Part shown: in pieces, positions 2,474 to 52,893 of the stretch
Layout: every line of letters starts with the position of its first letter
Numbering within the stretch: position 1 is the stretch's first letter
Source of the DNA: an uncultured Arcobacteraceae bacterium
GTDB lineage: Bacteria; Campylobacterota; Campylobacteria; Campylobacterales; Arcobacteraceae
Reading direction: 5' to 3'
Assembly: GCA_964022095.1 (NCBI GenBank)
Contig: CAXHZO010000011.1
Coordinates: forward strand, 1-64,000
DNA length: 64,000 nucleotides
The notes under the pieces: model-generated
What the model saw: the letters and a program-made list of their open reading frames with translations, nothing else
Told to the model about the DNA's origin: nothing
Databases searched by the model: none
Program-made: the position numbers and the translations under genes

Positions 2474-2567
2474 ATTTTTATTTTTCCTAAAACTTACATA
2501 GTTAATTTTGTTTTGTATTATATCAGTAAATTAATTTTTTTTTATTAAAAGTAATTTTAATCTTTTA

Positions 2568-2635
2568 TGATAATCATTCTTAGTATTAAGATTATATAAA
2601 GAATTGATTGATTATAATTTCGATAACAATTATCA
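2568..2635 (+). promoter_or_regulatory. Two Fur-box-like 7-1-7 sites and a TATAAT -10 upstream of the iron ABC operon
   Basis: TGATAATcATTCTTA (2568-2582) and CGATAACaATTATCA (2621-2635), each 2 mismatches from TGATAATnATTATCA; TATAAT at 2613-2618. Confidence 0.7.
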
Positions 2636-2659
2636 CTATGAAATAAAAAAGGTAAAAAA

Positions 2660-3664
2660 ATGATAAAAAAATTAGCACTAAGTGCAATTATATTTGCAAG
2701 TTCACTAATCGCAGCAGAACAAGTAAATGTTTACTCAAGTAGACATTATGATACAGATAAACAATTATTTAAAGCATTTGAGAAAAATACAGGAATAAAA
2801 GTTAAAGTAATTCAAGCTAAAGATGATGCTTTAATAAAAAGATTACAAACAGAAGGTAAAAATTCGCCAGCAGATGTATTTATTACAGTTGATGCTGCAA
2901 GAATTCAAAGAGCAACAGAAAAAAAACTATTTCAACCAATCAAATCTGAAGTTTTAGAAAAAAAAGTTCCAGCAACATTAAGAGATAAAGATAACCAATG
3001 GTTTGCTATTACAAAAAGAGCAAGAATTATTGCGGTTAGAAAAGGAAGTGGCTTTGAAAATAAAGAATACACTTATGAAGAGTTAGCAGATCCTAAATAT
3101 AAAGGACAAATTATGGTTAGATCTTCAAGTAATGTATATAATCAATCACTAATGGCAGCAATGATTGCCCACCATGGAGTAGAATATGCAACTAAATGGG
3201 CAAAGGGTATAGTAACAAATATGGCAAGAGATCCAAAAGGCAGTGATAGAGATCAAGCAAGAGGAGTTGCTGCAGGGCTAGGAAGTATTGCTATTATGAA
3301 TACTTATTATTTAGGAAAACTTGCTGTTGGAAGTGCATCAGATAAAGATACTGTAAGTAAATTAAAAGTAATATTCCCTAAATTTAAAAATGGTGCAACA
3401 CATGTAAATGTAAGTGCAGCAGGTGTAGCAAAATATGCAAAAAATAAAGAAAATGCAATTAAATTCATAGAGTTCTTAACTTCAAAAGAAGCGCAAGAGA
3501 TTTTCGCAAAAGGTAATTATGAGTACCCAGTTGTTGAAGGTTCAGAAATTTCTGAATTAGTTAACTCATGGGGTACAATTGAAGATGATAACTTAACAAT
3601 TAATGACCTTGGAGAAAATAATGCTAATGCAGTTAAAGCTTTAGACATTGCAGGATGGAAATAA
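2660..3664 (+). CDS. Fe(3+) ABC transporter periplasmic binding protein (FutA/FbpA family)
   Basis: Signal peptide; VYSSRHY, SPADVFITVDA and NTYY iron-ligand tyrosines. Confidence 0.92.
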   Translation: MIKKLALSAIIFASSLIAAEQVNVYSSRHYDTDKQLFKAFEKNTGIKVKVIQAKDDALIKRLQTEGKNSPADVFITVDAARIQRATEKKLFQPIKSEVLEKKVPATLRDKDNQWFAITKRARIIAVRKGSGFENKEYTYEELADPKYKGQIMVRSSSNVYNQSLMAAMIAHHGVEYATKWAKGIVTNMARDPKGSDRDQARGVAAGLGSIAIMNTYYLGKLAVGSASDKDTVSKLKVIFPKFKNGATHVNVSAAGVAKYAKNKENAIKFIEFLTSKEAQEIFAKGNYEYPVVEGSEISELVNSWGTIEDDNLTINDLGENNANAVKALDIAGWK

Positions 3665-3667
3665 TTA

Positions 3668-5275: not shown

Positions 5276-5278
5276 ACA

Positions 5279-6274
5279 ATGGTTAGTGTAAATAATTTTG
5301 GAATATCTTTTGATAAAACAAAAATTTTAGAAAATATAAATTTTGATGTTAATGAAGGTGAAATTGTAACCTTACTTGGTCAAAGTGGTTGTGGAAAAAC
5401 TACAATTCTTAGATCAATTGCAGGACTACAAAGAGAGCATGAAGGTGATATTTGTATTGGAAATGTTTGTGTATCATCAAAAGATGTATTCCAAAAAGAT
5501 AGAGAAGTTGGCTATATCTTTCAAGATTATGCACTATTCCCTCACTTAAGTGTTGAAGAAAATATTGCTTTTGCATTGGATAAATTATCTAAAAATACAA
5601 GAGAAAAAAGAGTAAATGAATTATTAGAACAGTTTGATATCGTCCACCATAGAAAAAAATCAACTCATCAATTATCTGGTGGACAACAACAAAGAGTTGC
5701 AATAGCAAGGGCAATGGCTAATAATCCAAAGATATTATTACTAGATGAACCTTTTGCAAATCTTGATTCTCAACTTAGATATAAAACAAAGATGTGGTTA
5801 AAAGGGCTAATTAAAGATTTAAATCTTAGTGCTATTTTAGTAACCCACGATAAAAAAGAAGCTCTTAATATTTCTGATAAAATAGGAATTATTCATAATA
5901 AACAATTGCTTCAATTTGACACTACATTAAATATTTATAATAAACCATCAAATTTTTATGTAGCAAATTTTTTATCAGAATTAAATCTAATTCCAAATGA
6001 CTTAATAAAAAAAGAAAATATTGAAATAAGTGATGATAAAGTTGCTGTAATTGAGATTCATAAATGTCATATTACAAATGAGAAAAATAGCTTTGAATTA
6101 ACAATTTTAGATTCATCTTTTTGTGGTGAATATTATGAATTACTAGTTGATTTTAAAGATTTTCCATGTGAAAAAACATTTAAAATTGTAGTTGATAATA
6201 TTGAAAAATTTGATATAAATGAAAGTTACTATTTAGATATAAATTTAGATGATTTAAAAATCATCTCTAAATAA
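5279..6274 (+). CDS. Fe(3+) ABC transporter ATP-binding protein
   Basis: Walker A GQSGCGKT, LSGGQQQR, LLLDEPF. Confidence 0.92.
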   Translation: MVSVNNFGISFDKTKILENINFDVNEGEIVTLLGQSGCGKTTILRSIAGLQREHEGDICIGNVCVSSKDVFQKDREVGYIFQDYALFPHLSVEENIAFALDKLSKNTREKRVNELLEQFDIVHHRKKSTHQLSGGQQQRVAIARAMANNPKILLLDEPFANLDSQLRYKTKMWLKGLIKDLNLSAILVTHDKKEALNISDKIGIIHNKQLLQFDTTLNIYNKPSNFYVANFLSELNLIPNDLIKKENIEISDDKVAVIEIHKCHITNEKNSFELTILDSSFCGEYYELLVDFKDFPCEKTFKIVVDNIEKFDINESYYLDINLDDLKIISK

Positions 6275-6302
6275 AGAAAAAGAGTTAACTCTTTTTCTTT
6301 AT
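6271..6302. terminator. Bidirectional intrinsic terminator
   Basis: Perfect 32-bp palindrome ataaagaaaaagagtt/aactctttttctttat spanning both convergent stop codons. Confidence 0.85.
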
Positions 6303-8134
6303 AACTGCCACTTAGCAATAAATTCATCATCAATATCTAAAATACCTCTAGATCTTAAATCATTTATTACTTCCCTTGAACAATCAACATCATCTGGCCA
6401 TCTTCTTTTAAAGTTATCAAATGAGTTTTTATTTGTACCATCTAAACAAACAGTATTAGATTCAATATAAACATCTCTATTTGAATCAATATTATTAACA
6501 ACTCTCCAAACTAACATATAAGAGTTTTCAACATCATTTTGATTAGATTCATCAATAATAATTAATATTTTTAAATGCTCATATAATGGCTTTAAATCTT
6601 CAAATAAGTGTTTTTGACTTCTAGTCTTGTCAACAGTAATAACAGTCACAGGATTTTTTGTATCAGTATAGTATTGCTTTAATCCCTTAACTTCATTTGT
6701 AATAGATTGCATTTTAAACAATAGCTGATCATCATCTAAAATAGTAATTCCTAATTCCTCAATCTCTTCTCCTGTACAATCAAGTCCAAGTTTTCCACCA
6801 ACTGCAAACTTTGGAGAACTATGATCAAGGGCATCAACGACACCTCTTGTAATTAAAATATCATCAATATCAATTCTATTTAAAATATGTCTACAGATTG
6901 CATCATGATCAGTTAAATCAGGAGAATCTTCATTTACAAAAATTGCATGTTTAACAAAACTCATTTGCCCTACTCCCCAAAATGCATGCATCATTTGACT
7001 TGCGTGACCGGGATATAAAGTTTTAATTTTTGCTAAAATTAGATTATGAAACACCCCATTTTCAGGCATGTAATAATCAATTAAATCAGGTGCTGTTGTT
7101 TTAAGTAATGGTAAGAAAATTCTCTCTGTTGCATGTCCCATATATTTATCTTCTAATGGTGGCTTTCCAACAACTGTTGCTAAATATGTAGGCTCTTTTT
7201 TATGAGTGATTGCAGTTACTTCCATAAATGGATACTCTTCTTCTAAAGTATAATATCCCGTATGATCTCCAAATGGACCTTCAATTCTTAATTTGCTTGG
7301 ATCAACAAATCCTTCAATTATAAAATCATTGTCTTTTGGAACATAAATATCATTTGTTATTGACTTAACTAATTGTGCGTTTTTACCTTTTACAAAACCA
7401 TAAAGCATAAGCTCAAAAATACCAATTGGAAGTGGCGCTTGACCGCACCAAATATACATTGGATCTCCACCAATTCCAATTGAAACTGGCATTTTTTTAC
7501 CAGCTTTTTTATACTCGTGGAAAAAATGATTTGAATCTTTATGAATTTGCCAATGTAAACCCAAAGTATTATCTTCATATACTTGAAGTCTATACATTCC
7601 AAGATTTTTCATTTCACCATTTAAACTTGTAGTATATACCTGCCCCATAGTAATAAATGGTCCACCATCTTGTTCCCAAGTTGTTAAAACAGGCAAATCT
7701 GATAATTTTGCATCAGCCCCTAATTTTATAACTTGTTGACATTCACCTTTTCCTTTTAGTTTTTTAGGAATAGTGTTTTTAAGGGCAAAAAGTTTTCCAA
7801 ATGTAGAAAGTTTTTCACTAAATGTTGTTGGTGGCTTCATTTTTAGTAAGCCTTCAATTTCATTACCTATTTTATCGCCATCACCAATGAAAAGCTTAAC
7901 TGCTTTTTCATTACAAAAAACATTCATTAGTACTGGAATGTCGTATTTCTTATCATTTCTTCTATCAACAACATTTGTAAAAAGTAAGGCTTTTGAATCC
8001 TCTTTTTTCACTTCAACATATGCAATATGAGGTATTTCAAGATAAATATCTAATTCATCATCAATAACTCTTAAAAGATCATTCTTTTTTAATAGTTCTA
8101 TAGCTTCTTTCATATCTTCCTCAATAATAATCAA
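6299..8134 (-). CDS. UbiD-family decarboxylase, probably for menaquinone (futalosine pathway) biosynthesis; true start probably 8113
   Basis: EGPFGDHTGYY, NLGMYR and TVVGKPPLED UbiD motifs; duplicated C-terminal domain. Confidence 0.88.
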   Translation of the reverse strand: MIIIEEDMKEAIELLKKNDLLRVIDDELDIYLEIPHIAYVEVKKEDSKALLFTNVVDRRNDKKYDIPVLMNVFCNEKAVKLFIGDGDKIGNEIEGLLKMKPPTTFSEKLSTFGKLFALKNTIPKKLKGKGECQQVIKLGADAKLSDLPVLTTWEQDGGPFITMGQVYTTSLNGEMKNLGMYRLQVYEDNTLGLHWQIHKDSNHFFHEYKKAGKKMPVSIGIGGDPMYIWCGQAPLPIGIFELMLYGFVKGKNAQLVKSITNDIYVPKDNDFIIEGFVDPSKLRIEGPFGDHTGYYTLEEEYPFMEVTAITHKKEPTYLATVVGKPPLEDKYMGHATERIFLPLLKTTAPDLIDYYMPENGVFHNLILAKIKTLYPGHASQMMHAFWGVGQMSFVKHAIFVNEDSPDLTDHDAICRHILNRIDIDDILITRGVVDALDHSSPKFAVGGKLGLDCTGEEIEELGITILDDDQLLFKMQSITNEVKGLKQYYTDTKNPVTVITVDKTRSQKHLFEDLKPLYEHLKILIIIDESNQNDVENSYMLVWRVVNNIDSNRDVYIESNTVCLDGTNKNSFDNFKRRWPDDVDCSREVINDLRSRGILDIDDEFIAKWQL

Positions 8135-8197
8135 TCACTTAATTAAGTTTAATTCTTATATCATTTTATCAATAAAATATAGTTTATAATAGAGGTT

Positions 8198-9364
8198 TTG
8201 AATATGGTTTATAATTTTAATGAAGAGATTAATAGAAAAAATACGAATTGTGCCAAATGGGATGGATTAGAAAAATACTTTGGATATGAAGACTTAAATC
8301 CACTATGGGTTGCTGATATGGATTTTAAAACTCCAAAGTTTATTAATGATGCAATAATAAATGCTGTATCAAATTCAGTTTATGGTTATAGTATTGTAAG
8401 TAAAGAATTACTTAATTCAATAGTTAACTGGCAAAAAAATCAGCACAATTGGGAAGTAAAACCAGATGATATTTTTATGGCAAACGGTGTTGTACCATCA
8501 TATAGTGCATGTATTGAAGCGTTTAGTGATATAGGAGATGAAGTTATTGTTCAAACTCCAATTTATCCACCGCTATTTAATTGTATCAATACAAATAATA
8601 GAAAAGTAGTTGTTAATGAACTTAAAAATGACAATGGATATTACACAATGGACTTAGAAGATTTAAAATCTAAGATAACTTCTAAAACAAAAATATTAGC
8701 ACTTTGTTCACCGCATAATCCAGTTGGAAGAGTTTGGAGTAAAACTGAACTTGAACAGTTAGCTCAAATTTGTATTGATAATAATATAATCATAATTGCT
8801 GATGAAATACATTCAGACTTAGCATTTGAGAAGTTTATTCCTATTGCCTCAATTAGTGAGAAAATAGCAAATCAAACTTTAACTTTAAATAGTGCAGGAA
8901 AAACATTTAATATCGCTGGACTTAATACTTCTTATGCAATTAGTAAAAATAAACAAATTCTAGGTAAGTTCAAAAAAGAAGCAATAAAAAGAGAAATAAA
9001 CTCTGTAAACTTTTTTGGATATATTGCAACACAAGCAGCTTATGAAAATGGAGCTGAATTTGTAAAACAATTAAAAGAATATTTAAAATCAAATATTGAG
9101 TTTACAAAAAATTATTTACAAAAAATAGATTCTAAAATTAGTTTTTACACACCAGAAGCTACATATTTAATTTGGCTAGATTTTAATCAAACTAATTTGA
9201 ATCATGATGAAATAAAAGATATACTATTGACAAAGTCAAAAGTAGCTTTAAATAATGGTGTTTCTTTTGGTAGCAATGGGAATGGATATTTTAGACTAAA
9301 TATCGCATTAAATCAAAAAGCCCTTGAAAAGGCATTAAAACAGATTTTTAGTGAATTTAAATAG
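8198..9364 (+). CDS. MalY/PatB family PLP-dependent C-S lyase
   Basis: PLWVADMDF, CSPHNPVGRVW, ADEIHSD, SAGKTFNIAG. Confidence 0.92.
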   Translation: MNMVYNFNEEINRKNTNCAKWDGLEKYFGYEDLNPLWVADMDFKTPKFINDAIINAVSNSVYGYSIVSKELLNSIVNWQKNQHNWEVKPDDIFMANGVVPSYSACIEAFSDIGDEVIVQTPIYPPLFNCINTNNRKVVVNELKNDNGYYTMDLEDLKSKITSKTKILALCSPHNPVGRVWSKTELEQLAQICIDNNIIIIADEIHSDLAFEKFIPIASISEKIANQTLTLNSAGKTFNIAGLNTSYAISKNKQILGKFKKEAIKREINSVNFFGYIATQAAYENGAEFVKQLKEYLKSNIEFTKNYLQKIDSKISFYTPEATYLIWLDFNQTNLNHDEIKDILLTKSKVALNNGVSFGSNGNGYFRLNIALNQKALEKALKQIFSEFK

Positions 9365-9493
9365 CAAATACATAGCAAAGTATTACAAATTTTCTCACTA
9401 ATGTAATAAATGGGATTGAAACAGATTTTTTATATTATAAGATAAAAAAATTAGTGTACAATCATAATTAGAAATTAATAAACAGGATAAGAA

Positions 9494-9856
9494 ATGTCAA
9501 CGCAACTAGTTCTAGCTTCAATTATTTTTGTCATTATTGGTTTCATTTTATCTGCAGTTTTTGTATTATCAAAATATGTAGGTCCTAAAAATGAAGAAGT
9601 TCAACTGAAAAATACAGTTTATGAAAGTGGTGTATCAAATCCAGTTGGAAGTACTAATATTAGGTTTTCTGTCAAGTTCTATCTAGTTGCAATTTCTTTT
9701 TTACTTTTTGATGTTGAAGTTGTTTTCATGTTTCCATGGGCAGTAAATGTAGTGGAACTTGGAGTTGCAGGTCTTGTAAAAATGTTCGTTTTTGTTGGAC
9801 TATTATTTGCTGGCCTGATTTATATTTATAAGAAAAAGGCGTTATCATGGGATTAG
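9494..9856 (+). CDS. nuoA: Complex I subunit A
   Basis: YESG and FLLFDVE..FMFPW motifs. Confidence 0.95.
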   Translation: MSTQLVLASIIFVIIGFILSAVFVLSKYVGPKNEEVQLKNTVYESGVSNPVGSTNIRFSVKFYLVAISFLLFDVEVVFMFPWAVNVVELGVAGLVKMFVFVGLLFAGLIYIYKKKALSWD

Positions 9857-10362
9857 GAGTTGAATCAAAATTAGGTGACTCAATTGTCACTACAAAACTA
9901 GACCATGCAGTTAACTGGGGTAGATCTTACTCACTATGGCCTATGGCTTTTGGTACTGCTTGTTGTGGTATTGAGTTTATGAGTGTTGCTGGTGCTAAAT
10001 ATGATTTATCTAGATTTGGTGCAGAAGTTGTAAGATTTTCACCAAGACAAGCTGACTTACTTATAGTTGCAGGAACAATTTCTTATAAACAAGCTCCTAT
10101 TTTGAAAAAAATCTATGAACAAATGTGTGAACCTAAATGGGTTATTTCAATGGGTGCATGTGCTTGTTCTGGTGGTTTTTATGATAATTACACAACTGTT
10201 CAAGGAATTGATGAAATAATTCCTGTTGATGAATATGTGGCAGGATGTCCTCCAAGACCTGAAGCTGTTTTAGATTCAATCATGAGAGTTCAGAAAAAAG
10301 CTGGTGATGAATCAATTATTAAAGATAGAGTAAAAGAATACAAAGGATTCTTAGATGCTTAA
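9847..10362 (+). CDS. nuoB: Complex I subunit B
   Basis: [21 protein letters not shown] (N2 cluster). Confidence 0.96.
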
Positions 10363-42300: not shown

Positions 42301-44398
42301 TGATTTAATAAACCTACTTAGTGAAAAAACAAAACTTTCAGATAAAACCATACACAACATCATCAAACTACTTGATGAAGGTTGTACTATTCCTTTTATT
42401 GCAAGATACAGAAAAGATTACACTAATGGTGCAACTGATGAAGAATTAAGAATTTTTGAAGAGACATATAACTATTTTGATAAGTTTTTGCAAAGAAAAG
42501 AAGAGATTAAAAATATACTAAAAGAGAAAAACTTTTTAGATGATAGGGTTTTAAAAAATCTAAATGAAGCAAAAACACTACAAGCTTTGGAAGATATATA
42601 TACTCCATTTAAAGATAAAAAATCTTCAAGAACAAGTAGTGCAATAGAAAATGGACTAGAACCACTAGCAAATATAATTCAATCTATGAAATACTCAAAA
42701 GAAGATGTAGAGTATAAGTCAAAACAGTTTTTAAATAAAAATATAAAGACAACTACTGATGCAATAAATGGTGCAAAAGATATCATAGCCCAAAGATATG
42801 CAGATGATTTTAAATCAAAAGAGGTTTTAAGAAACCTAATATCAAATTGGGGAAACTTAGAGATAAAAGAAGCAAAAGAGTTTGATAAAAATGGTGTTTA
42901 TGCAAACTTTGCAAATACAGTTGAGAAAATAAAATATATAAAATCACATAGAATCTTAGCAATTTTAAGAGCAGTAAATGAAAAGCAACTAAGTATAAAA
43001 GTAGATATTGATGAAAAGCATATTTTAGAAAATATCAAAAAATACAAAATTCCATCACATGCAAACTCTTCAAAAGATATAGTTTTTGATGCATACAAAG
43101 ATGGATTAAAAAGACTTTTGCTTCCTAGTTTAAAAAGAGAAGCAATCAATAACCTAAAAGAAAAAGCTAGCCTAGAAGCTATCGAGCTTTTTGGGAAGAA
43201 CCTAAAAGAGTTACTCCAAACAGCTCCACTTGTAAATCAAGTAATCTTAGGAATGGATCCTGGATATAAAACTGGATGTAAACTTGCAGTAATTGATGAA
43301 AATGGAAACTACCAAGATAGTAGTGTTATATATCCTACAAAACCAAAAGAGGATATAAAAACATCTTCAAAAGTAGTACTTGAACTAATCAAAAAATACA
43401 ACATCACTTCAATAGCAATTGGAAATGGAACAGCTTCAAGGGAAACTGCGCAGTTTGTAAGTGAACTAATCACTCAAAATAATCTAGAAATAAACTACGC
43501 AATAGTTAGTGAAATAGGAGCTAGCGTTTACTCTGCTTCAAAAATAGCTATACAAGAGTATCCAAACTTAGATGTTACCATAAGAGGAGCTATCTCAATA
43601 GCAAGTAGACTAAGAGACCCAATGGCAGCCTTAGTTAAGATAGACCCAAAATCTCTTGGAATCGGACAGTATCAACACGATGTAAACCAAAAAGAGTTAG
43701 AGAAAAAACTAGAAAACATCACTATAGATTTAGTAAATAAAGTAGGAGTAGATATAAACTCTGCTTCATATAAACTTTTATCTTTTATCTCAGGAATATC
43801 TGAAAAACTAGCTAAAAACATAATAGAACATAGAGCCAAAATCAAAAACTTCACTTCAAAAAAACAACTTCTTGAGGTAAAAGGAATTGGTGCAAAAGCA
43901 TATGAGCAAGGTGTTGGATTTTTGAGAATCAAAGATGGAAAATCTATTTTAGATAATACTGGTATTCACCCTGAAGATTATGATTTAACTGATAGGATAC
44001 AAAAGAACTATGAATTAGAAAAAATAGTTGATTTTGAAAAAGTAGCAAAAGAGTTAAACACTACACCACTAAAACTAAAAGATATAGTAACAGAACTTTT
44101 AAAACCTGGATATGATGTAAGACAAGAGTTTAATCAAGTAAAGTTTTCAAGTGATATTACAAATATAGAAGATTTAAAAGAGGGTTTTACCTTAAGTGGA
44201 ATAGTTAGAAACATCACTGATTTTGGAGCTTTTGTAGATATAGGACTTAAAAATGATGCCCTACTTCATATCTCACAAATAAGCCAAAAAAGAATCTCAC
44301 ATCCAAGTGAAGTTTTAAGTATAAATCAAAATTTAGAAAATATAAAAGTACTAAGTGTAGACTTAGAAAAACAAAGAGTAGGTCTTAGTTTAAAATAG
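42293..44398 (+). CDS. tex: Tex (YhgF) RNA-binding transcription accessory protein
   Basis: TIPFIARYRK, GMDPGYKTGCK, IGNGTASRET, GIGQYQHDV, C-terminal S1 domain. Confidence 0.95.
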   Translation: MTNDLINLLSEKTKLSDKTIHNIIKLLDEGCTIPFIARYRKDYTNGATDEELRIFEETYNYFDKFLQRKEEIKNILKEKNFLDDRVLKNLNEAKTLQALEDIYTPFKDKKSSRTSSAIENGLEPLANIIQSMKYSKEDVEYKSKQFLNKNIKTTTDAINGAKDIIAQRYADDFKSKEVLRNLISNWGNLEIKEAKEFDKNGVYANFANTVEKIKYIKSHRILAILRAVNEKQLSIKVDIDEKHILENIKKYKIPSHANSSKDIVFDAYKDGLKRLLLPSLKREAINNLKEKASLEAIELFGKNLKELLQTAPLVNQVILGMDPGYKTGCKLAVIDENGNYQDSSVIYPTKPKEDIKTSSKVVLELIKKYNITSIAIGNGTASRETAQFVSELITQNNLEINYAIVSEIGASVYSASKIAIQEYPNLDVTIRGAISIASRLRDPMAALVKIDPKSLGIGQYQHDVNQKELEKKLENITIDLVNKVGVDINSASYKLLSFISGISEKLAKNIIEHRAKIKNFTSKKQLLEVKGIGAKAYEQGVGFLRIKDGKSILDNTGIHPEDYDLTDRIQKNYELEKIVDFEKVAKELNTTPLKLKDIVTELLKPGYDVRQEFNQVKFSSDITNIEDLKEGFTLSGIVRNITDFGAFVDIGLKNDALLHISQISQKRISHPSEVLSINQNLENIKVLSVDLEKQRVGLSLK

Positions 44399-44416
44399 AA
44401 AAATAAAAGGAAAAAA

Positions 44417-44683
44417 ATGCAAGATATAAAAACACAACTAAAAGAGTTAATTGACGAAACAATGATTCCAGAAACAATGGATTATATAGAAGAATTAAAA
44501 GTTTTAAAACAAAATAACAAAGCTACACAAGATGATTTAAACGCCATTGAAGAGATGCAGTTCTTTTTAGAAGAGTTAGAATCTGTTGTAACTGCAATAG
44601 AAGAAGATAAAATCTCAGATGAAGAAGCACAAGAGATTTTTACTAAAATTGAAAGTATGATTGAGGAACATCAAGAACATTGA
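44417..44683 (+). CDS. Hypothetical acidic helical protein
   Basis: AAGGA RBS, 88-aa ORF followed by a terminator. Confidence 0.75.
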   Translation: MQDIKTQLKELIDETMIPETMDYIEELKVLKQNNKATQDDLNAIEEMQFFLEELESVVTAIEEDKISDEEAQEIFTKIESMIEEHQEH

Positions 44684-44685
44684 TT

Positions 44686-44710
44686 AAAAACTAGAGAGAA
44701 ACTCTAGTTT
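44686..44710. repeat. Left copy of a 25-bp direct repeat / terminator hairpin flanking the CRISPR-Cas locus
   Basis: aaaaactagagagaaactctagttt, identical to 51324-51348. Confidence 0.9.
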
Positions 44711-44711
44711 C

Positions 44712-46329
44712 TAATTAACCTACTCTCAAATCCCCATTTGATATAATACAAAACCAGTAAATTTCATGCCTTCGTAAGTTTTAACCTACTCTCAAATCCC
44801 CATTTGATATAATCAAAGCATTCAGGAATTGGCTGTCCTTTTGTTTTAACCTACTCTCAAATCCCCATTTGATATAATCAAAACATTTGAAAGTAATCAC
44901 CATCTAAAGTTTTAACCTACTCTCAAATCCCCATTTGATATAATTGTTCTAAATTTGTTTGTAAAACCATTGCTGTTTTAACCTACTCTCAAATCCCCAT
45001 TTGATATAATTATATCACGAATATGAACGCAGAAAGCTTTGTTTTAACCTACTCTCAAATCCCCATTTGATATAATCTAAGTTCTAATTGGCAATATTCG
45101 GAAGTAGTTTTAACCTACTCTCAAATCCCCATTTGATATAATGTTGTAGTTTTGTGCTTTCAGTTCGCGTTAGTTTTAACCTACTCTCAAATCCCCATTT
45201 GATATAATATTATGATAATAGTCGGCACTAATTCTTATGTTTTAACCTACTCTCAAATCCCCATTTGATATAATTTAATAGCTTAATTGTTATTGATGAG
45301 GCACAGTTTTAACCTACTCTCAAATCCCCATTTGATATAATTTGCTTTCTTGTTTCTTCTTCAAATACGTTCGTTTTAACCTACTCTCAAATCCCCATTT
45401 GATATAATGATTACTTTGCTCAAGAATTAGCGTTAAGGGTTTTAACCTACTCTCAAATCCCCATTTGATATAATTCATTCTTTAATGTTCTCTGGAATTC
45501 CCATGTTTTAACCTACTCTCAAATCCCCATTTGATATAATATTTGAAGTCCCATACCATCTAATGTCAGTGTTTTAACCTACTCTCAAATCCCCATTTGA
45601 TATAATCCCATCTTTCTTTTCGTATACATTAGTTAGTTTTAACCTACTCTCAAATCCCCATTTGATATAATATATATTTTCCAATTGCATTGTTTAAGTT
45701 TGTTTTAACCTACTCTCAAATCCCCATTTGATATAATTAGAACCTTGGCAGAAAAAGATGATTTGCGTTTTAACCTACTCTCAAATCCCCATTTGATATA
45801 ATAAATAAAAATAGATATTTATCGGAAATTAGTTTTAACCTACTCTCAAATCCCCATTTGATATAATGGGAGCAGGAACATGGATAGTGGTTTACTTGTT
45901 TTAACCTACTCTCAAATCCCCATTTGATATAATGGGAGCAGGAACATGGATAGTGGTTTACTTGTTTTAACCTACTCTCAAATCCCCATTTGATATAATT
46001 TGTTATTGACTCAAGATTATCAATATCCCGTTTTAACCTACTCTCAAATCCCCATTTGATATAATTTCTTAATTCGAGAGATGCATTAGTATCTTGTTTT
46101 AACCTACTCTCAAATCCCCATTTGATATAATAACAAGAATTTAAAGAAAACAATAGTAGTTGTTTTAACCTACTCTCAAATCCCCATTTGATATAATTCA
46201 AAAGCTAGAAGTAAGTTCTTGAAAGATGTTTTAACCTACTCTCAAATCCCCATTTGATATAATTTTAGATGTATTTCAGATATATTTATGATGGTTTTAA
46301 CCTACTCTCAAATCCCCATTTGATATAAT
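44712..46329 (+). CRISPR. Type II-C CRISPR array: 25 repeats of 36 bp, 24 spacers of 29-31 bp
   Basis: Repeat GTTTTAACCTACTCTCAAATCCCCATTTGATATAAT; first repeat (44712) has 3 altered 5' bases; orientation from the GTTTT 5' end, tracr complementarity and embedded TGnTATAAT. Confidence 0.99.
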
Positions 46330-46377
46330 AGAGTAGATTAAAACTTCGATTTTATAGGGTTTTCAAGTCTAAAAACA

Positions 46378-46728
46378 CTAAAAAACAAGTACAGTTTGTA
46401 CTTGTTTTTCTACTTTTTCTTCGGGTTTTTCTCTATAATTTTCTATTACTAACATATTTTTATATTGTGCTTCTGTAACTTTTACTACTCTTATAGAACC
46501 ATTTAAAGGTGAAGCTAGTTCAATCTTTTTTTCATATTTTTGTGCGATTGCCAAACTTTTGCAAAATCTTATATAAACTGAATATTGAAACATTATAAAA
46601 CCCATTTCTAAAAGTTTATTTCTAAATTTTGTATATTTTTTTATATCTTTTTTTGTATTTGTTGGCATATCAAACATTGCAAATAAAACCATCTTTCTAT
46701 ACCTACTTTCTTGTGATATATTTTTCAT
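46378..46728 (-). CDS. cas2: CRISPR-associated endoribonuclease Cas2
   Basis: LFAMFDMPT, FRNKLLEMGFIMFQYSVY, GSIRV..VTEAQY. Confidence 0.96.
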   Translation of the reverse strand: MKNISQESRYRKMVLFAMFDMPTNTKKDIKKYTKFRNKLLEMGFIMFQYSVYIRFCKSLAIAQKYEKKIELASPLNGSIRVVKVTEAQYKNMLVIENYREKPEEKVEKQVQTVLVF

Positions 46729-47597
46729 AATTTAAATAATATTAATTCTTCAGTTTTTGATAAGCAAATTGATTGATAATTTGCAACCATAAGTTTCATA
46801 CAGTTTGATACAGTCATATTTTTATTATCATAAGTAACAGTTTCCTCTAATAGTTTTAATAAAGCTATTTTAATAGATGAATTTAATTCCATATCTTTTT
46901 TTATAGACCTTGCAACGTAGTTATCTACTATTGGTCTAAAAGGTTCTATTAAATCATCTGCTAGATTAAAAGAATTTAATTCACTACTGTGATGAATACC
47001 AAAAGCTGGATTTAAACCATAGGCTATTAAATATCTACAAATAGAACTTCTAAATATTGCATAACCAAAGTTTAGTACTGAATTGTTTATATTTTCAGGA
47101 TTATTTCGTGAAAAATCTTTACCAAATAACTCTTTAAAATAATACGCTGCTGCAGTTGCCTCAATATTTTCTTTATCATTTGATTTTATTCTAGGAATTA
47201 ATAAATCAATATATTCATAGTTTTTATTTAGTTTTTTTAATATTTTGGATTGATTTCTCACTTTTGAAGCGACTATATCTTTCCATATTTGATTTAGTTT
47301 TGGTTTTGAAACTAGGATTTGAGACTTTTGTATTTTTGTTGTTCTACTGTTTTTATTTATTCCAAGAAGTATGGAACTAGGCATAAATTTTTCATCACAA
47401 AAGATTACATTGATATTTGATTTAGTTAATTGAGATAGAAGTGCAGAGGTGATGGTAGTTTGCTGGTTTTCTATGACTATTGTATCAATATCATCAAAAC
47501 AGACAGTTGTTTCAAAGTCATCAATTTTTACAGATATTAGATTATTTTTATAGCTTAGATATGATTTGTTTTTTATATATAGTTTTTGAAGAGACAT
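46725..47597 (-). CDS. cas1: Type II CRISPR-associated integrase Cas1
   Basis: EATAAAYYF..LFG, NSVLNFGYAIFRS, GIHH, FNLADDLIEPFRP. Confidence 0.97.
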   Translation of the reverse strand: MSLQKLYIKNKSYLSYKNNLISVKIDDFETTVCFDDIDTIVIENQQTTITSALLSQLTKSNINVIFCDEKFMPSSILLGINKNSRTTKIQKSQILVSKPKLNQIWKDIVASKVRNQSKILKKLNKNYEYIDLLIPRIKSNDKENIEATAAAYYFKELFGKDFSRNNPENINNSVLNFGYAIFRSSICRYLIAYGLNPAFGIHHSSELNSFNLADDLIEPFRPIVDNYVARSIKKDMELNSSIKIALLKLLEETVTYDNKNMTVSNCMKLMVANYQSICLSKTEELILFKL

Positions 47598-47697
47598 TTA
47601 TAAACTCCTCAAAAAGAAGAGCTTATAAAAAAACTTTTGCGGGACTAAATCGTCCCTTGTTTTAACCAGACTATCAAATCCCCATTTGATATGAGAA
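47597..47697 (-). ncRNA. tracrRNA (ends approximate)
   Basis: 47659-47692 matches the repeat (9 bp + internal loop + 19 bp); minus-strand TATAAT at 47709-47704; then GGGAC/GUCCC hairpin, U7 tract and a 14-bp hairpin whose G-U pairs work only on the minus strand. Confidence 0.9.
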
Positions 47698-47709
47698 TAT
47701 TTTATTATA

Positions 47710-50700
47710 TTATTTCTTAAACTCTTCATAGGAAATATCTCCTTGATAATTTATAAATACTTTTCTTGCAATTGTGTCTTTATTCAATGTTACTTTTATT
47801 TCAACTTTAGATTTTGTATTTAAAGGTTTTAATTTAATTTTATTGTTTGAACTTGATATATCTCCTCCACCATTAAAAATAAAATACTCTTTAGTAGATT
47901 CTTTTAAATTTTCAATTTCTAGAATATCACCTTTTTGAATATTGATTTTGTCTTCGTAATCTTTTATAAGTTCTATTTTCTTTTCATTTATTTTTGGAGG
48001 AATATTGTTTTTTATAGAAGAAAAATAGTTTAAACCTATAACTTGTCCTTTTGAAGTATTAAATAAATCTACATTTAATGTAGTGTCATTTAGTTTTGCG
48101 ACAAAGGGAATATCTTTTTCTTTTAATTCTTTATATACATCAAGTGATAATCTTTGTAATCTATCTTTTTGTGTTTTATCTGTGATTATTATACTATCTG
48201 CTTTTGAGGCACTTTTAGTTTTTACTTTTATATTTCTAACTATTTGTTTTAGACCTTTTTTTGTAATAAAAAAGCAAGGTTCGTTTTGTAAAAACTCTTC
48301 ACTTTTTTTCTGTTCATCTAGTCTAGATATTTTATCTTTTATAGCTATTGTTTGCTCTGTATCTTCATAGTTTTTTTTGTTTGGTAGTTCACCTTTTAAT
48401 TCATCTATCTCTTTTTTAATATTTGAAATATTTTCTCTTGTAGTTAAAAGTTTATTTTTATATTCTAATAATGCATTTCTAATATTTTCTTGTTTTGGTA
48501 AATCTAAATGAGAGATCAAATCTTCTACTTTTTTATTTACCTCTTTATCACTTATATCTTTTCCATAATTATCAAATAAAAGATTTTTATCGATAGCTTT
48601 TTTATCAATTTGATAAAATTCTTCTTTCTCTTTATCTAAATATAGTTTTACATTTCCATCTTTAAAGCCTACTACATTGTCTCTTTTTTTGATTATTGGG
48701 CAAATATATAATTCGTTGTTTTCATATTTTTTAACTTTATCTTTTATAAATTCTACTAAATTAGTTCCATCACTAGTAACTGGAAATCTAGTTTTGATTT
48801 TTTCAATTATCTTCTTTGTTTTAAATCCATTTTCGTTTTGTTTAAAAAAATCATTTAAACCTTTTTTTGCTGATTCATTTAAAAGAGAAATTACTATTGC
48901 ATCAATAGTATGATGATAGTTTGTTTTCCTATCTTTTTTATCATCTTCATTTTTAGGCTGTACTTTATCAACACCCCAAAGTCTTTTTAATTCACTTATT
49001 GCTTTTCCAGTAACTCTTATTACATTTTGATTTGTTTCACCTTTTCCATATTCATTTTGTTTAGGATATAAATAGTGTTCCAAATAATTAGCTATAATCT
49101 TTGTAGCACTTCTAGTATCATTTAAAAACCTATCTTCAAGATTTTCTCTTTCCCAATTTTTATTTATATTTTCTTCATCAGTTAGCCAAAAAACTTTACT
49201 ATCGTTTGTTAATTCTTTTTTAACTCTTGAAGTAAACTCCTCCCAAATATTTTTTGATTTTAGATAAGTGATTGGATGTGTATTTGATTTGTCCTGATTA
49301 TGTTTTTTTAGAACTAATATTTTATTTTTATATGAATTTATCCATATTTTACTTCTTGGGATAAAATGTTCTACTTCTGTTTTGTGTTCATCAAGTGCAT
49401 CTTCTAAAGTTAAAGGCTCCCCACTATAAAGACATTTTGATTTTTGTTCAATTAAAAGTCTAGCTCTTTCTATATTTTTTCTACTTAATTCATAATCTTC
49501 AGCTAAAAGCAGTTTCTCAGAAGCTTTTATCTCTTTTCTACTATTTGCTTGAGCTTCTTTGATTTGCTCTTCTTCTTTTTTTGAGTTTAACTCTCTGGCA
49601 GTTTCAATGATTATTTTATCTATTTTCCCATATTTAAATATTAAATCATTTACTAATCTTCTTAAAATTGAAATTACTCTTTTTACATTTGGAGAAACTA
49701 AAGGCTGATAAAATATATGCTCTCTTTTGAAGTTCTCAATATTTTTTTCAAGCCAAAGTAAATCTTTTTCTGATGGATTTAATGGTGGTAAATAAGAATA
49801 AGGTTTCATATCTAAATATTTTCTAAAATATCCTAATTCAACAAGAGTATCGTGATATGATTTTTCAAATCTCATTTTTTGTAAAATCTCTTCAATGAAA
49901 CATAACGAAAAAGAAGCATATGTGTCTTTTGTTCCTTTTGAAACTTTTGATAATTCTTTGATTATTTCATTACTTAAAAGGTTTTCTTTTTCAACTTTTT
50001 TAATCTCTTTAAAAATTTGTTCTTTATTTACATAATAAAATATTTTCTTTAAAATCTCTGAATATAAGTCTTTATGTGTTTTAAAAATATCAAAATCAGT
50101 CTTTTTAAATATTTCCAATAACTGTGTATGAATTCCAATATCAAGAATAGTTTCATCTTGTTTATTTGAAGTTTTAATTTTTATATTTTTTAGTCCAGCT
50201 TTATCAAAAATATTTTTAGTATTTATTGTTTTTGTTGGTGGTTTTTTTAACCATAACTCTACTGTATTATCAATTTGTTCTTTTGTTGGAGTAAATAGTT
50301 CTCCGGTTTTATCATTAAAAATTAAATTACCTAAAATAGAATTCTCAATTCTTTGTCTAATAGTTAACTCAATACTAGAAATATGAGATTTTGGAATTCT
50401 TTTTTGAGGCTTTTTATGGAATTTATTATAGAAACTACAAAAACCAACCATATCTTCCATACTTTTTAATGCTCTTTGTTCAAAAATACCTATTGAGTTT
50501 TCATTTACACCATTAATAAGCTTATTCTTAAAATTATCATATATTTCAACAGTTTTAAAAAGCTCTTTATTTTCTTTTTGTGATTCTAATAATATTTCTA
50601 ATTCTTCTTGCCATAAATCTCTATCAAGTGAATTATTATAATTGTCTTTTTTATTTCTAACTGCAATATTTGTAAAACCATTATTTTCTAAATTTAACTT

Positions 50701-51216
50701 TTTATTTAACAAAACAGAGGAAGGAAGAGATAAATCATTTTTTACATATAGTTCTTTATTGTTAGAGATAGCTTCATTTATCACTCCATCATCTTTTGAA
50801 TCTTCTGTTTTAAATTGATTAGAATATCCCCTTCTTGTAATGATAGAATAAAGTGAAAAAGTGAAATCATCTTTCGATAAATTTTTACCATTAACGGCTT
50901 CTTGCCTTAAAATATATGGATTTTTATCTTTTGATAATTTGTTAAAATATTTAATTGGATTAGTAAGAATAGATTTTTCTGCTAGTTCAAAACTACTCAA
51001 TAGTTTTCTAACTATTTCATTTCTTCTACTTTTTCTTTCATTTCTTCTTCGGCTACTTCTAAAACTTCTTCTATCCTCTGCTTTAATATATTCACTAAAT
51101 ATAACACTATTTGAAGACAGTTCTTTAAAAACTGTTTGTTCATTTTCTATTTTTATTTCATTAAGTGAATAACCAATACTATTTGTACCAATATCTAATC
51201 CTAATACCTTTGACAT
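47710..51216 (-). CDS. cas9: Type II-C Cas9 (1168 aa), catalytic motifs intact
   Basis: RuvC-I LGLDIGTNSIG, Arg-rich bridge helix, RuvC-II IIETARE, HNH EVEHFIPRS..N..NQDK, RuvC-III HHTIDA; no csn2 or cas4 in locus. Confidence 0.98.
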   Translation of the reverse strand: MSKVLGLDIGTNSIGYSLNEIKIENEQTVFKELSSNSVIFSEYIKAEDRRSFRSSRRRNERKSRRNEIVRKLLSSFELAEKSILTNPIKYFNKLSKDKNPYILRQEAVNGKNLSKDDFTFSLYSIITRRGYSNQFKTEDSKDDGVINEAISNNKELYVKNDLSLPSSVLLNKKLNLENNGFTNIAVRNKKDNYNNSLDRDLWQEELEILLESQKENKELFKTVEIYDNFKNKLINGVNENSIGIFEQRALKSMEDMVGFCSFYNKFHKKPQKRIPKSHISSIELTIRQRIENSILGNLIFNDKTGELFTPTKEQIDNTVELWLKKPPTKTINTKNIFDKAGLKNIKIKTSNKQDETILDIGIHTQLLEIFKKTDFDIFKTHKDLYSEILKKIFYYVNKEQIFKEIKKVEKENLLSNEIIKELSKVSKGTKDTYASFSLCFIEEILQKMRFEKSYHDTLVELGYFRKYLDMKPYSYLPPLNPSEKDLLWLEKNIENFKREHIFYQPLVSPNVKRVISILRRLVNDLIFKYGKIDKIIIETARELNSKKEEEQIKEAQANSRKEIKASEKLLLAEDYELSRKNIERARLLIEQKSKCLYSGEPLTLEDALDEHKTEVEHFIPRSKIWINSYKNKILVLKKHNQDKSNTHPITYLKSKNIWEEFTSRVKKELTNDSKVFWLTDEENINKNWERENLEDRFLNDTRSATKIIANYLEHYLYPKQNEYGKGETNQNVIRVTGKAISELKRLWGVDKVQPKNEDDKKDRKTNYHHTIDAIVISLLNESAKKGLNDFFKQNENGFKTKKIIEKIKTRFPVTSDGTNLVEFIKDKVKKYENNELYICPIIKKRDNVVGFKDGNVKLYLDKEKEEFYQIDKKAIDKNLLFDNYGKDISDKEVNKKVEDLISHLDLPKQENIRNALLEYKNKLLTTRENISNIKKEIDELKGELPNKKNYEDTEQTIAIKDKISRLDEQKKSEEFLQNEPCFFITKKGLKQIVRNIKVKTKSASKADSIIITDKTQKDRLQRLSLDVYKELKEKDIPFVAKLNDTTLNVDLFNTSKGQVIGLNYFSSIKNNIPPKINEKKIELIKDYEDKINIQKGDILEIENLKESTKEYFIFNGGGDISSSNNKIKLKPLNTKSKVEIKVTLNKDTIARKVFINYQGDISYEEFKK

Positions 51217-51248
51217 AATTAGCCTTTAATAATTGTAATAATAACTAA

Positions 51249-51286
51249 ATAATAACATAATAATGACTCAGAAATGACTCAATTTA
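51249..51286 (-). promoter_or_regulatory. cas9 promoter: extended -10 plus double TGAGTCA operator-like box
   Basis: Minus strand TAAATTGAGTCATTTCTGAGTCATT (51286-51262), 4 nt, TGTTATTAT (51257-51249); same layout at 62928-62965. Confidence 0.7.
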
Positions 51287-51323
51287 GAAGAAAAGTAGGA
51301 TTATAGATTAGAAAAATTGTTAG

Positions 51324-51348
51324 AAAAACTAGAGAGAAACTCTAGTTT
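51324..51348. repeat. Right copy of the 25-bp direct repeat; overlaps the ridA stop and its terminator
   Basis: Identical to 44686-44710; stem aaaaactagag/ctctagttttt. Confidence 0.9.
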
Positions 51349-51725
51349 TTAAATGCAATTACATCAACTTCTACTAAAACATTTTTAGGAAGTGTTTTCA
51401 CTGCAACTGTAGCACGTGCAGGTGCAGTTTCAGCGGAGAAGTACTCTGCATATACTTCATTAAATGCTACAAAGTTATCCATATCTGATAAATAACAAGT
51501 AGTTTTAAGTACATTATCAAAAGATGAGTTTGCTTCTGTTAATACTGCTTTTAAGTTTTCCATAACTTGTTTTGTTTGCTCTTTGATTCCACCTTCACAA
51601 ATTTCCATTGTTTCAGTGATTAATGGAATTTGTCCTGATAAAAATACTAGCTTCTCAAAAGAAGTTCCTTGGTTATATGGGCCAATTGCCGATGGTGCTT
51701 TATTAGTAGAAATTATTTCTTTCAT
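51342..51725 (-). CDS. ridA: RidA family reactive intermediate/imine deaminase
   Basis: APSAIGPY, SGQIP, FNEVY, PARATVAV..LP..VLVEVD. Confidence 0.92.
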   Translation of the reverse strand: MKEIISTNKAPSAIGPYNQGTSFEKLVFLSGQIPLITETMEICEGGIKEQTKQVMENLKAVLTEANSSFDNVLKTTCYLSDMDNFVAFNEVYAEYFSAETAPARATVAVKTLPKNVLVEVDVIAFKN

Positions 51726-51759
51726 AAAAATCCTTTATATTTTTTAAGATGGTATTATA

Positions 51760-52893
51760 TTAGAATCTTCTTTTTATTACAATTATTATTAAAATAATTA
51801 AAATAAACCAACCAAAAATTTCAAAGAATTTTTGAACACCAAAAATACTAACTAAAGGCATAGTAAGTATGGGAGAGAAAAACTGTCCCATAAATAATGA
51901 GCTTGTTAGATATCCTGAACTCTTTACTCTTTTTTCTGGTTTTACTAAAGTTAACATCCAAGAAGTTACACAAGTCATTAGTAAACCTCCACCAAATCCC
52001 ATCAGTGGCGAAGTTAAGAAAAAGTAATAGACATTATCTATAATTCCAATAATAATAAATCCAATACCAATTACTACTAACCCAATGATATAAATAGTAC
52101 TAAATTTTAGTTTCTTTTTTAACCTTGCAAAAGCCAATGCACCCAAACCATTAAAAACAAAGGCAAGACTTATAATACCACCTGCTAATGTTCCACTTGC
52201 ACTAAAATGATTCATAATCAAAAATGGCATTTGTGTTGGTAAAATATAAAAAATCACCATCAAAATAAATGCTAAAACATAAATAAAAAACACTCTATTA
52301 TCAGCTGTTTCTTCTTCTAATTCTTGATCTTGGATTGGTATTTCTTTTACATATTTTAATACAAAAGGTAAAAGAACAACTCCAATAGAATAAATCAAAA
52401 ATGGATAATGCCAAGAGATATCACTAAGCATTCCTCCACCTGCTACAAATAGCACTCCTCCAAGAGAAGTAAAAGCCATTTGTACACCCATGAATCTATG
52501 TCTTTGCTCACCTTTAAAGTAATCCCCTACTAAAGAAGTAGATACAATCATAAGTATTGCAACAGATATTCCAAATACTGCTCTTGATACTAATATTTGT
52601 TCAATACTTTGTAAATAAAACCCTGCAGTTCCAGTTAGTGAAAAAAGAATCAGTGCAAAAACAGCAGAGTTTTTCTTACCAATTTTATATACAAAATGCC
52701 CTAAAAAAGGCGCTAAAAAAGCTATTGTAAAAGATGGCAAAGTAACTATTAGTCTAGAATATAGTTCTATATTATCTATTTTAAAAATATCTTTTAAGTG
52801 AGGAATCACTGTAATTATTGCAACATTACTCATCATTGTTGTTACTGCTAAAAGTAACAGTGTGAGTTTAGTTAAGTTTGAGATTTGGTTCAA
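51760..52893 (-). CDS. MFS transporter
   Basis: About 12 TM helices; LVGDYFKGEQR MFS-like loop. Confidence 0.85.
   Translation of the reverse strand: MNQISNLTKLTLLLLAVTTMMSNVAIITVIPHLKDIFKIDNIELYSRLIVTLPSFTIAFLAPFLGHFVYKIGKKNSAVFALILFSLTGTAGFYLQSIEQILVSRAVFGISVAILMIVSTSLVGDYFKGEQRHRFMGVQMAFTSLGGVLFVAGGGMLSDISWHYPFLIYSIGVVLLPFVLKYVKEIPIQDQELEEETADNRVFFIYVLAFILMVIFYILPTQMPFLIMNHFSASGTLAGGIISLAFVFNGLGALAFARLKKKLKFSTIYIIGLVVIGIGFIIIGIIDNVYYFFLTSPLMGFGGGLLMTCVTSWMLTLVKPEKRVKSSGYLTSSLFMGQFFSPILTMPLVSIFGVQKFFEIFGWFILIILIIIVIKRRF

Follow-up and report, generated by a model that had tools for sequence, protein, structure and literature searches.

The timing of costly or self-toxic defence expression in bacteria is largely an open issue, and most of the regulators known to govern it are local, one per island. 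The same issue is raised by a stretch of 64,000 nucleotides (hereafter the window; GenBank assembly GCA_964022095.1, contig CAXHZO010000011.1, positions 1 to 64,000) from an uncultured bacterium of the family Arcobacteraceae, in which the promoter of a type II-C cas9 carries a short repeated box that recurs at the promoter of an unrelated gene for a 346-aa protein. A preliminary description of the window had taken this box for an operator of palindromic appearance, through which a factor encoded in trans wires Cas9 into an inducible stress and defence regulon. Why do two unrelated genes share a promoter element, which other genes stand behind it, and what could read it? These questions were approached by comparing the window with the rest of its genome (G000), with the sister species G018, which is the sole other genome of the genus (g1) compared, and with genomes across the family. 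The element turns out to be a tandem direct repeat held at a fixed distance from the -10 box, which fronts 14 promoters in G000 and recurs in other genera before both defence and envelope genes.

At the cas9 promoter, AATGACTCAgAAATGACTCAATTTA occupies 51262-51286, and at the promoter of the 346-aa gene, AATGACTCAcAAATGACTCAATTTA occupies 62941-62965; re-reading of the sequence confirmed both positions and the identity of 24/25 letters. On the coding (minus) strand the two sites read TGAGTCATTTCTGAGTCA (cas9) and TGAGTCATTTGTGAGTCA (346-aa gene). Each core is followed by exactly 9 nt and then by a hexamer, TATTAT for cas9 and TAAAAT for the 346-aa gene, with TGn preceding it (Table 1); the 4-nt gap to an extended -10 originally given for both sites is the same distance counted from the limits of the 25-mers. 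The start codons follow 47 nt (cas9) and 42 nt (346-aa open reading frame, ORF) downstream of the box. As for a -35 hexamer, neither window site yielded a promoter call on the coding strand in a standard -35/-10 scan. A search of the window for a third doubled heptamer, with up to 2 mismatches allowed, gave back just the two known sites, each scored on both strands, which agrees with the preliminary description. Statistics drawn from the window by itself are weak at 2 mismatches, with 0.50 matches expected, 4 observed over both strands, and 4 reached in 1/100 shuffles.

The genome gives a far sharper answer. The G000 assembly (2.57 Mb, 27.9% G+C, 31 contigs) holds 10 exact copies of TGAGNCATTTNTGAGNCA and 4 with one substitution, and all of these 14 sites have a -10 downstream; the next-best 8 matches, with two substitutions, have none. 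Exact TGAGWCATTTNTGAGWCA is found 10 times against a base-composition expectation of 0.002, and its count was 0 across 10 genomes simulated with a third-order Markov model. The matches are promoter-specific, as all 14 lie outside ORFs of at least 100 aa and every one faces an ORF starting 20-100 nt downstream. The observation made in the window is real and highly non-random. In G018 there are 17 exact copies, one of them upstream of the cas9 ortholog, and alignment of the 31 sites of both genomes gives the consensus aAAwTGAGTCATTTyTGAGwCAtTtnttnGnTAnAAT, with an A-tract (aAAw) directly upstream of the box and a near-consensus -10 of the form TGnTAnAAT. The sequence GAGWCATTTnn is present twice in 31/31 aligned sites. 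About 31 bits of information lie within the box and close to 0 in the flanks, which argues that the box is not a mobile repeat. The gap from TGAGWCA to the hexamer is 9 nt in 30/31 sites (14/14 in G000 and 16/17 in G018, where locus L019 has 8 nt); counted from GAGWCAT it is 8 nt in 30/31 sites and 7 nt in one.

What the sites conserve is thus the direct repeat GAGWCATTT, and the box consists of GAGWCATTTnn twice with an 11-bp period. This revises the earlier picture of the operator: the paired heptamers stand, and their quasi-palindromic look is incidental, because the second unit is GAGACA in 8/14 G000 sites; in another genus the base preceding the second GAG is often A. Instead of a palindrome, the site is a tandem direct repeat, fixed and oriented beside the -10. 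Taken together, the 14 G000 sites and their fixed geometry point to a shared promoter-proximal cis-element that ties cas9 to unrelated genes and would imply a factor acting in trans, as was first proposed.

Which genes stand behind the box? In G000 they include cas9-cas1-cas2 and the 346-aa secreted protein, for which no family match was found in Pfam, NCBIfam or PADLOC and an Atlas search gave no lead. Another box fronts sbcD-sbcC, followed without a gap by GajA (PADLOC E=6.7e-214) and GajB (1.1e-176), so that a Gabija defence system appears grafted onto an sbcD-sbcC DNA-repair operon. Further along this locus (L002, G000:C12:9400-21000, at 1051-10238), past Gabija, lie a 101-aa DUF2779-like fragment and a PDC-S05 candidate. 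The remaining boxes precede a PAS protein with a NIT-HAMP chemoreceptor; P0001, a 195-aa receiver-like protein whose ATG lies 6 nt past the -10, with the gene of a small secreted protein after it; an operon encoding a 255-aa protein, a 99-aa lipoprotein, P0002 (an atypical 216-aa Trans_reg_C protein), an ABC exporter and a transporter of the AI-2E family; a galE/ugd polysaccharide cluster; a type II secretion operon (GspG, GspF, GspC-PDZ); a DUF3015 gene with an Lnb_N protein; a hemerythrin; an HlyD-like fragment beside an IS200 transposase; and two units of no assigned function. The box-driven hemerythrin is broken up into two ORFs, 62 and 121 aa long (L008 4402-4999, G000:C16), possibly by a frameshift or a sequencing error. 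In addition, the box drives a 3-deoxy-D-manno-octulosonate (KDO)/capsule operon, recognised by domain families (a HAD-type phosphatase, a DAHP-synthase-I-family enzyme, a SIS-CBS protein and a cytidylyltransferase), whose genes we take to be kdsC, kdsA, kpsF, kdsB and a 2-epimerase; its next gene is 84% identical to the first gene behind the capsule box of G018. Behind the 14 G000 sites there is no recA, lexA or WYL gene, nor is a ribosomal or other core operon among the genes listed there.

The set is partly conserved in the sister species. G018 keeps the box ahead of the orthologs of cas9 (protein 89% identical), the 346-aa gene, the 255-aa operon, the secretion operon and the HlyD-like gene, so that five orthologous operons, plus the capsule region, have boxes in common. 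When the spacers are aligned pairwise, the box and the -10 are set off from their surroundings by conservation, and the stretch between the terminator hairpin upstream of cas9 and the box has diverged. Targets specific to G018 include HsdM-HsdS of a type I restriction-modification system, large Ig/cadherin lipoproteins and an OmpA-VWA lipoprotein.

Across the family, exact copies of the 18-mer occur in 12/121 sampled genomes. The geometry pattern GAGNCA-N5-GAGNCA-N9-TANNAT was then scanned in 184 genomes of the family, with the same pattern reversed as a control. It is present in 46/184 genomes (2/2 in g1, 20/44 in g11, 21/25 in g20, and single genomes of three further genera), and the reversed control had 0 matches in the 184. 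Matches number 10 and 17 in the two g1 genomes, up to 11 per genome in g11, where they take the form GAGTCATTTG[A/T]GAGTCATTTG, and 1-5 per genome in g20, where they are of the GAGACA type; the repeat variants are genus-specific, and kinship among the genomes inflates the apparent replication. One g11 match (G126, L310) sits amid flagellar-type coding sequence and looks like chance.

The downstream genes were inspected at 11 sites in G121 and at 60 more sites in 16 genomes. In g11, the box precedes cas6 in G121 and G141, and by identical N-terminus also in G138 and G147; the G121 cas6 scores 53.2 bits with its NCBIfam model, under the model cut-off of 58.65. Further g11 targets are a PLD-ResIII helicase with DUF3427, HsdR-Abi_2-HsdM, DUF2779 with a McrB-like ATPase, Mrr-type nucleases (G151, G143), an Eco47II endonuclease operon (G142), HsdM-HsdS (G146), HigB (G138), and, in a G121 operon, a WYL regulator with a PD-(D/E)XK nuclease. 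In five g11 genomes sbcD-sbcC again lies behind the box (G151, G143, G142, G134, G130). The same genus has boxes before a TraT lipoprotein with cdsA and dxr (six genomes), Wzz-galE, PAS-chemoreceptor pairs and GGDEF-EAL proteins, and in G136 before the same 255-aa/Trans_reg_C operon as in the window's genus. The 17 sites inspected in g20 precede hemerythrins, P0001 homologs, polysaccharide genes and lipoproteins, with no recognised defence gene among them. In raw counts, uncorrected for background, defence genes stand behind 5/11 sites in G121 and 2/14 in G000. The proposal of a stress and defence regulon thus holds in part: defence genes are indeed included (Gabija in G000; type I restriction-modification in G018; cas6, Mrr, Eco47II, Abi, McrB-like genes and a second cas9 in g11), but the set is not one of pure defence, since genes for envelope, secretion or signalling functions make up at least half of those downstream.

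Several related patterns were seen across the family. Six g20 genomes (L030, L031, L033, L034, L036, L037) keep TGAGACATTTKTGAGACA without a -10 at the right distance; the conserved sequence at these loci is cttaaaaWTGAGACATTTKTGAGACA, with no obvious downstream ORF, which means either that the site is put to a different use here or that the locus encodes a non-coding RNA. The P0001 family consists of 193-211-aa receiver-like proteins with a CxxC insert (L004 1088-1672, which is G000:C2:331887-332471; L032, L295, L299; L048, L066, L070), whose ATG comes 5-6 nt past the -10, so that their transcripts are probably leaderless. Its homologs in genus g8, again probably leaderless, are preceded by GTTACA-N5-GTTACA, 9 nt and TACAAT, the same architecture with another half-site. 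In the box-less genus g7 (L074-L083), the 255-aa gene has a conserved upstream pattern of its own, TTTTACTNTTTTTTACT and AATGAAATAGTAAGT.

Did the box travel with cas9? The N-terminal 300 residues of the window Cas9 have orthologs in 22/184 genomes of 12 genera, with 27-87% identity outside G000, and 18 full-length relatives are at least 46% identical to this query. Of the 22 genomes, G000 and G018 are the only two with a box within 130 nt upstream of cas9; the cas9 orthologs of G164, G020 and G055, which are box-positive genomes of g20, are without it. Because the cas9 orthologs of other genera (46-84% identical) lack the box, it belongs to the host lineage and not to the cas cargo. The Cas9 of G142 (g11; L282, G142:C2:1497180-1500511; TIGR01865 E=1e-120) is 27% identical to the window Cas9 over 299 aa and has the box at the same geometry, which makes it a second, independent cas9 placed behind the element. 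Across different genera of the family, cas9 can be 83-84% identical over the first 300 residues in differing contexts (L108, L109 and others), and this similarity suggests recent horizontal transfer of the locus.

How might the box work? We consider it somewhat more probable than the alternatives taken together that the box is the operator of a host regulon, read by a dimer of the OmpR/PhoB winged-helix type acting as a class II activator. According to this model, a head-to-tail dimer would occupy the -35 position normally read by sigma region 4 and recruit RNA polymerase, and the active regulator would cause cas9-cas1-cas2 to be transcribed together with about 13 other G000 operons. The box would then set the levels of Cas9, Cas1 and Cas2, and probably of a read-through tracrRNA, with crRNAs made from their own repeat-internal promoters; incoming defence genes, two unrelated cas9 included, have ended up behind the host element. 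The sites have the marks of a class II site of the OmpR/PhoB/SARP type, namely 11-bp tandem repeats in a fixed, oriented position over the -35, with the 3' repeat at the distance from the -10 (about 8-10 bp) expected of such sites, and G000 encodes 38 Trans_reg_C proteins. The placement relative to the transcription start follows from leaderless genes: the ATG of a 193-200-aa gene lies 5-6 nt past the -10 in G000, G114, G070 and G104, which fits a leaderless transcript and puts the start about 7 nt after the hexamer and the 22-bp box at about -38 to -17. By the same token, the cas9 start is predicted near 51242, with a 5' untranslated region of about 26 nt and AAAGG ahead of the ATG. Activation is favoured over repression because spacing and orientation are invariant.

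Several points weigh against this model. No winged-helix protein was found that tracks the site: 4/38 Trans_reg_C proteins (C1:164242, C6:99495, C4:93111 and P0002) were tested against the presence of the box and all failed, and the ligand need not be a winged-helix protein. Operon membership was deduced from strand and ORF spacing alone. Epsilonproteobacterial sigma-70 promoters generally lack a -35 (PMC3847290). With an extended -10 that is already good, a protein bound at -38 to -17 could equally repress.

The architecture has precedents. In Escherichia coli, PhoB reads the 18-22-bp Pho box, which is made of two 11-bp direct repeats with the consensus CTGTCAT; each repeat joins 7 conserved bases to some 4 AT-rich spacer positions, and the box stands in for the -35, roughly 10 bp ahead of the -10. 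The element described here has the same two 11-bp repeats in the place of the -35, and the core GTCAT is common to CTGTCAT. A Pho box reading was nevertheless rejected, as no GAGWCA repeat lies upstream of pstS in G000 (C5:12749-13810), the pstSCAB-phoU-phoB cluster is elsewhere, and no phosphate gene is found behind the 14 G000 sites. A further likeness is to the target promoters of SARP regulators, whose direct repeats are spaced by 11 or 22 bp, the 3' one lying 8 bp ahead of the -10, and at which the SARP domain of AfsR, an OmpR-type DNA-binding domain, covers the -35 as a side-by-side dimer that engages sigma region 4 (PMC10936776). Like the afs box of Streptomyces, as presented there (PMC10936776), the element has heptameric repeats 11 bp apart, GAGWCAT then 8 nt then TAnnAT, and a 22-bp box over the -35. 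It differs in phylum and repeat sequence, in the box centre (about -27.5 here, -29.5 for the afs box), and in that SARPs serve one gene cluster whereas this box is genome-wide. Moreover, all 38 Trans_reg_C ORFs of G000 are 214-252 aa long, the size of response regulators, so that no large SARP is evident, although the BTA domain was not searched for.

The regulation of cas genes offers a further comparison. In Streptococcus agalactiae, CovR, a global response regulator of surface and virulence genes, binds a cas9 promoter, so that Cas9 immunity is joined to a broader network; the promoter it represses is a second, distal one, in a type II-A system which also has tracr-L feedback (PMC12216829). 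Here, in contrast, a II-C locus has the box at the one promoter that is evident, the element is shared with several further defence systems, and no repeat-like tracr target is found upstream of cas9 (best score 19 in 51200-51800, against 53 at the anti-repeat), for which reason feedback of the tracr-L type is disfavoured. In Pseudomonas and Serratia, quorum sensing, Rcs and KinB-AlgB couple CRISPR-Cas with surface polysaccharide or cell-density programmes; these cases are genetically defined and concern type I and III systems. To our knowledge, they have not been shown to involve a common operator that restriction, Gabija or Abi systems also use. The element is not described in the literature searched on Arcobacter transcription starts, Arcobacter CRISPR regulation and anti-phage regulons, in which matches to the motif string were unrelated eukaryotic primers.

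The strongest of the competing explanations, if still an unlikely one, keeps the same element and regulon and makes the bound protein a repressor that blocks constitutive extended -10 promoters and is released on a signal. The near-consensus TGnTAnAAT speaks for it, as does the position of the site over -38 to -17 in a phylum whose promoters need no -35; the sigma-70 promoters of Campylobacter jejuni consist of gnTAnaAT 4-8 nt upstream of the start, without a -35 (PMC3847290). CovR of group B Streptococcus, a regulator of the OmpR family, is a precedent as well, for at its cas promoter it is a repressor (PMC12216829). A repressor, however, needs neither 1-bp precision nor a single orientation, yet 30/31 sites have one spacing and all have one orientation, and the same spacing and orientation are found in two further genera, a pattern typical of factors that contact RNA polymerase. 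Polymerase itself could be the reader, through the alpha C-terminal domain or sigma region 4, in which case the box would mark a constitutive class of strong promoters with no dedicated regulator. The fixed geometry to the -10, the A-tract just upstream and the four unsuccessful regulator tests are in line with this, but with only 14 such promoters per genome, no ribosomal or core operon among the listed targets, and 24/44 genomes of g11 without any box, we regard it as improbable.

Control by a WYL-type or DNA-damage-responsive factor, the connection suggested at the outset, fares worse and now seems very doubtful. WYL regulators do control defence genes (PMC10693628), and a WYL gene lies inside one box-driven G121 operon, but that gene is a target and not a neighbour of cas9. 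Neither WYL nor recA nor lexA is found behind the 14 G000 sites, no WYL domain appeared when ten ORFs of the window, around cas9 and the 346-aa gene, were scanned, and an 11-bp tandem direct repeat abutting the -10 is unlike the architecture known for WYL factors; a DNA-damage circuit accordingly finds no backing here. That the box is the -35-like element of an alternative sigma factor of the extracytoplasmic function (ECF) type is scarcely credible: it is a conserved upstream element at fixed spacing, but the -10 resembles that of sigma-70 and is extended by TG, neither repeat is found 16-18 nt from this -10, and there is a single Sigma70_r2 gene (ORF 640-644 aa) in each of the box-positive G000, G121 and G138, against four in the box-negative G148, three of them extra and ECF-sized. 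Chance similarity, a dispersed mobile repeat with a promoter, or a GANTC methylation switch can be dismissed as equally far-fetched, for although the genome is AT-rich and repetitive-looking and GAGTC is a GANTC site, 10 copies against 0.002 expected and an empty control in 184 genomes argue against chance, the lack of similarity beyond the box and -10 against a mobile repeat, and the GAGACA units (8/14 second repeats in G000 and nearly all g20 units), which are not GANTC, against methylation.

Which protein could be the proposed winged-helix activator? All 38 Trans_reg_C proteins of G000 were filtered by comparing the box-positive G121 and G162 with the box-negative G148, and the survivors were profiled more widely. 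C1:164242 was rejected because it has a match in 160/184 genomes (E up to 1e-55), with 68-100% identical homologs in most of them, box-negative ones included; its close homologs have E of about 1e-98 or better among the matches listed. C6:99495, an orphan beside luxS, has orthologs of at least 82% identity in 8/20 box-positive g11 genomes and is absent from G138, which has 9 boxes. C4:93111 is present in 16/20 box-positive and 0/24 box-negative genomes of g11, yet it is also found in the box-less g7 (11/11), g18 (8/8) and g14 (7/7), as well as in g3 and g16. C3:168731, searched within g11, has orthologs of its own (79% identical) in 2/44 genomes, and its weaker matches are the C4:93111 loci. 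P0002, which lies in a box-driven operon in G000, G018 and G136, looked like an autoregulator; it was set aside, as its recognition helix is nearly invariant in the box-less g7 and g3, a 53%-identical homolog exists in the box-negative G148, and its operon lacks the box in g3, g7, g16 and g18. At C2:148335-149006, a divergent response regulator keeps synteny with the operons of g3 and g7 that lack the box. P0001, finally, was rejected because it is absent from G018 despite 17 boxes there.

At G000:C6:98878-100187, the orphan atypical OmpR-type regulator stands directly upstream of a gene read as luxS by its translation, outside any family scan. Since one box operon ends in an AI-2E-family transporter, a link to autoinducer-2 (AI-2) signalling is possible.

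The cas9 locus has the features of type II-C: cas9-cas1-cas2 are its only cas genes, an anti-repeat lies beside cas9, and the CRISPR repeats end in a -10-like box (Table 1). The repeat-like sequence in the 112-bp spacer between cas9 and cas1 is likely a tracrRNA gene; Rfam gave no match in 44000-52000, anti-repeat included. Repeat-internal promoters are tied to type II-C, as in Neisseria and Campylobacter, and by analogy with these systems the TGATATAAT repeat ends look like internal promoters, from which crRNAs would run opposite to cas9 and independently of the box. Upstream, the hairpin that ends the RidA-like gene, which a simple terminator scanner missed, sets this gene apart from the cas9 promoter.

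Table 1. Positions of the two boxes, the cas9 locus and neighbouring features in the window
Feature	Position	Strand	Basis or remark
Box of the cas9 promoter, two 11-bp direct repeats	51259..51280	-	GAGTCATTTCT 51280..51270 + GAGTCATTATT 51269..51259
18-bp core of the cas9 box, TGAGTCATTTCTGAGTCA	51281..51264	-	
Extended -10 of the cas9 promoter, TGtTATTAT	51249..51257	-	sequence; hexamer 51254..51249, TGt before it
Second box in the window, GAGTCATTTGT + GAGTCATTTCT	62938..62959	-	18-bp core 62960..62943
Extended -10 of the 346-aa gene, TGgTAAAAT	62928..62936	-	hexamer 62933..62928, TGg before it
cas9, 1168 aa	47710..51216	-	Pfam HNH_4, RuvC_III; TIGR01865 E=4.5e-118; PADLOC Cas9
cas1; cas2	46725..47597; 46378..46728	-	Pfam Cas_Cas1, CRISPR_Cas2
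Likely tracrRNA anti-repeat, repeat-like 34 nt in the cas9-cas1 spacer	47659..47692	-	CRISPR-repeat local alignment score 53
CRISPR array, 25 repeats of 36 nt	44712..46329	+	every repeat ends in TGATATAAT on the + strand
Hairpin and T-run at the end of the upstream RidA-like gene (51342..51725)	51324..51350	-	sequence; kept in G018
346-aa protein with N-terminal signal-peptide-like segment	61860..62900	-	ortholog of 349 aa, 77% identical, in G018

What does this arrangement mean for the family? The novelty lies in the size and make-up of the set, in which one operator of a known architectural type stands before many unrelated defence and envelope loci in several genera. One short operator ties Cas9 to Gabija, restriction, Abi and the cell surface across at least three genera. 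Tentatively, and with somewhat less than even confidence, we suggest that a master regulator conserved in several genera of the family runs a joint programme of immunity plus envelope. Its operator would front, on the one side, two unrelated Cas9, a cas6-type CRISPR system, Gabija behind sbcDC, type I, II and IV restriction, Abi, McrB-like genes and the PLD-helicase, and, on the other, capsule and polysaccharide loci, TraT-like lipoproteins, type II secretion and adhesins. If this is true, new defence genes would be domesticated by landing behind a host operator, and the cell could raise all of its barriers to foreign DNA together on one signal. The 22-bp box provides a testable handle, as a probe for the regulator and as a promoter set for reporters, and the occurrence of the same cas9 with and without the box in related genera amounts to a natural experiment. 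The element thus offers a view of horizontally acquired immune genes coming under host transcriptional control, and, as far as promoter sequence can tell, it implies that the native expression of this II-C Cas9 would be conditional.

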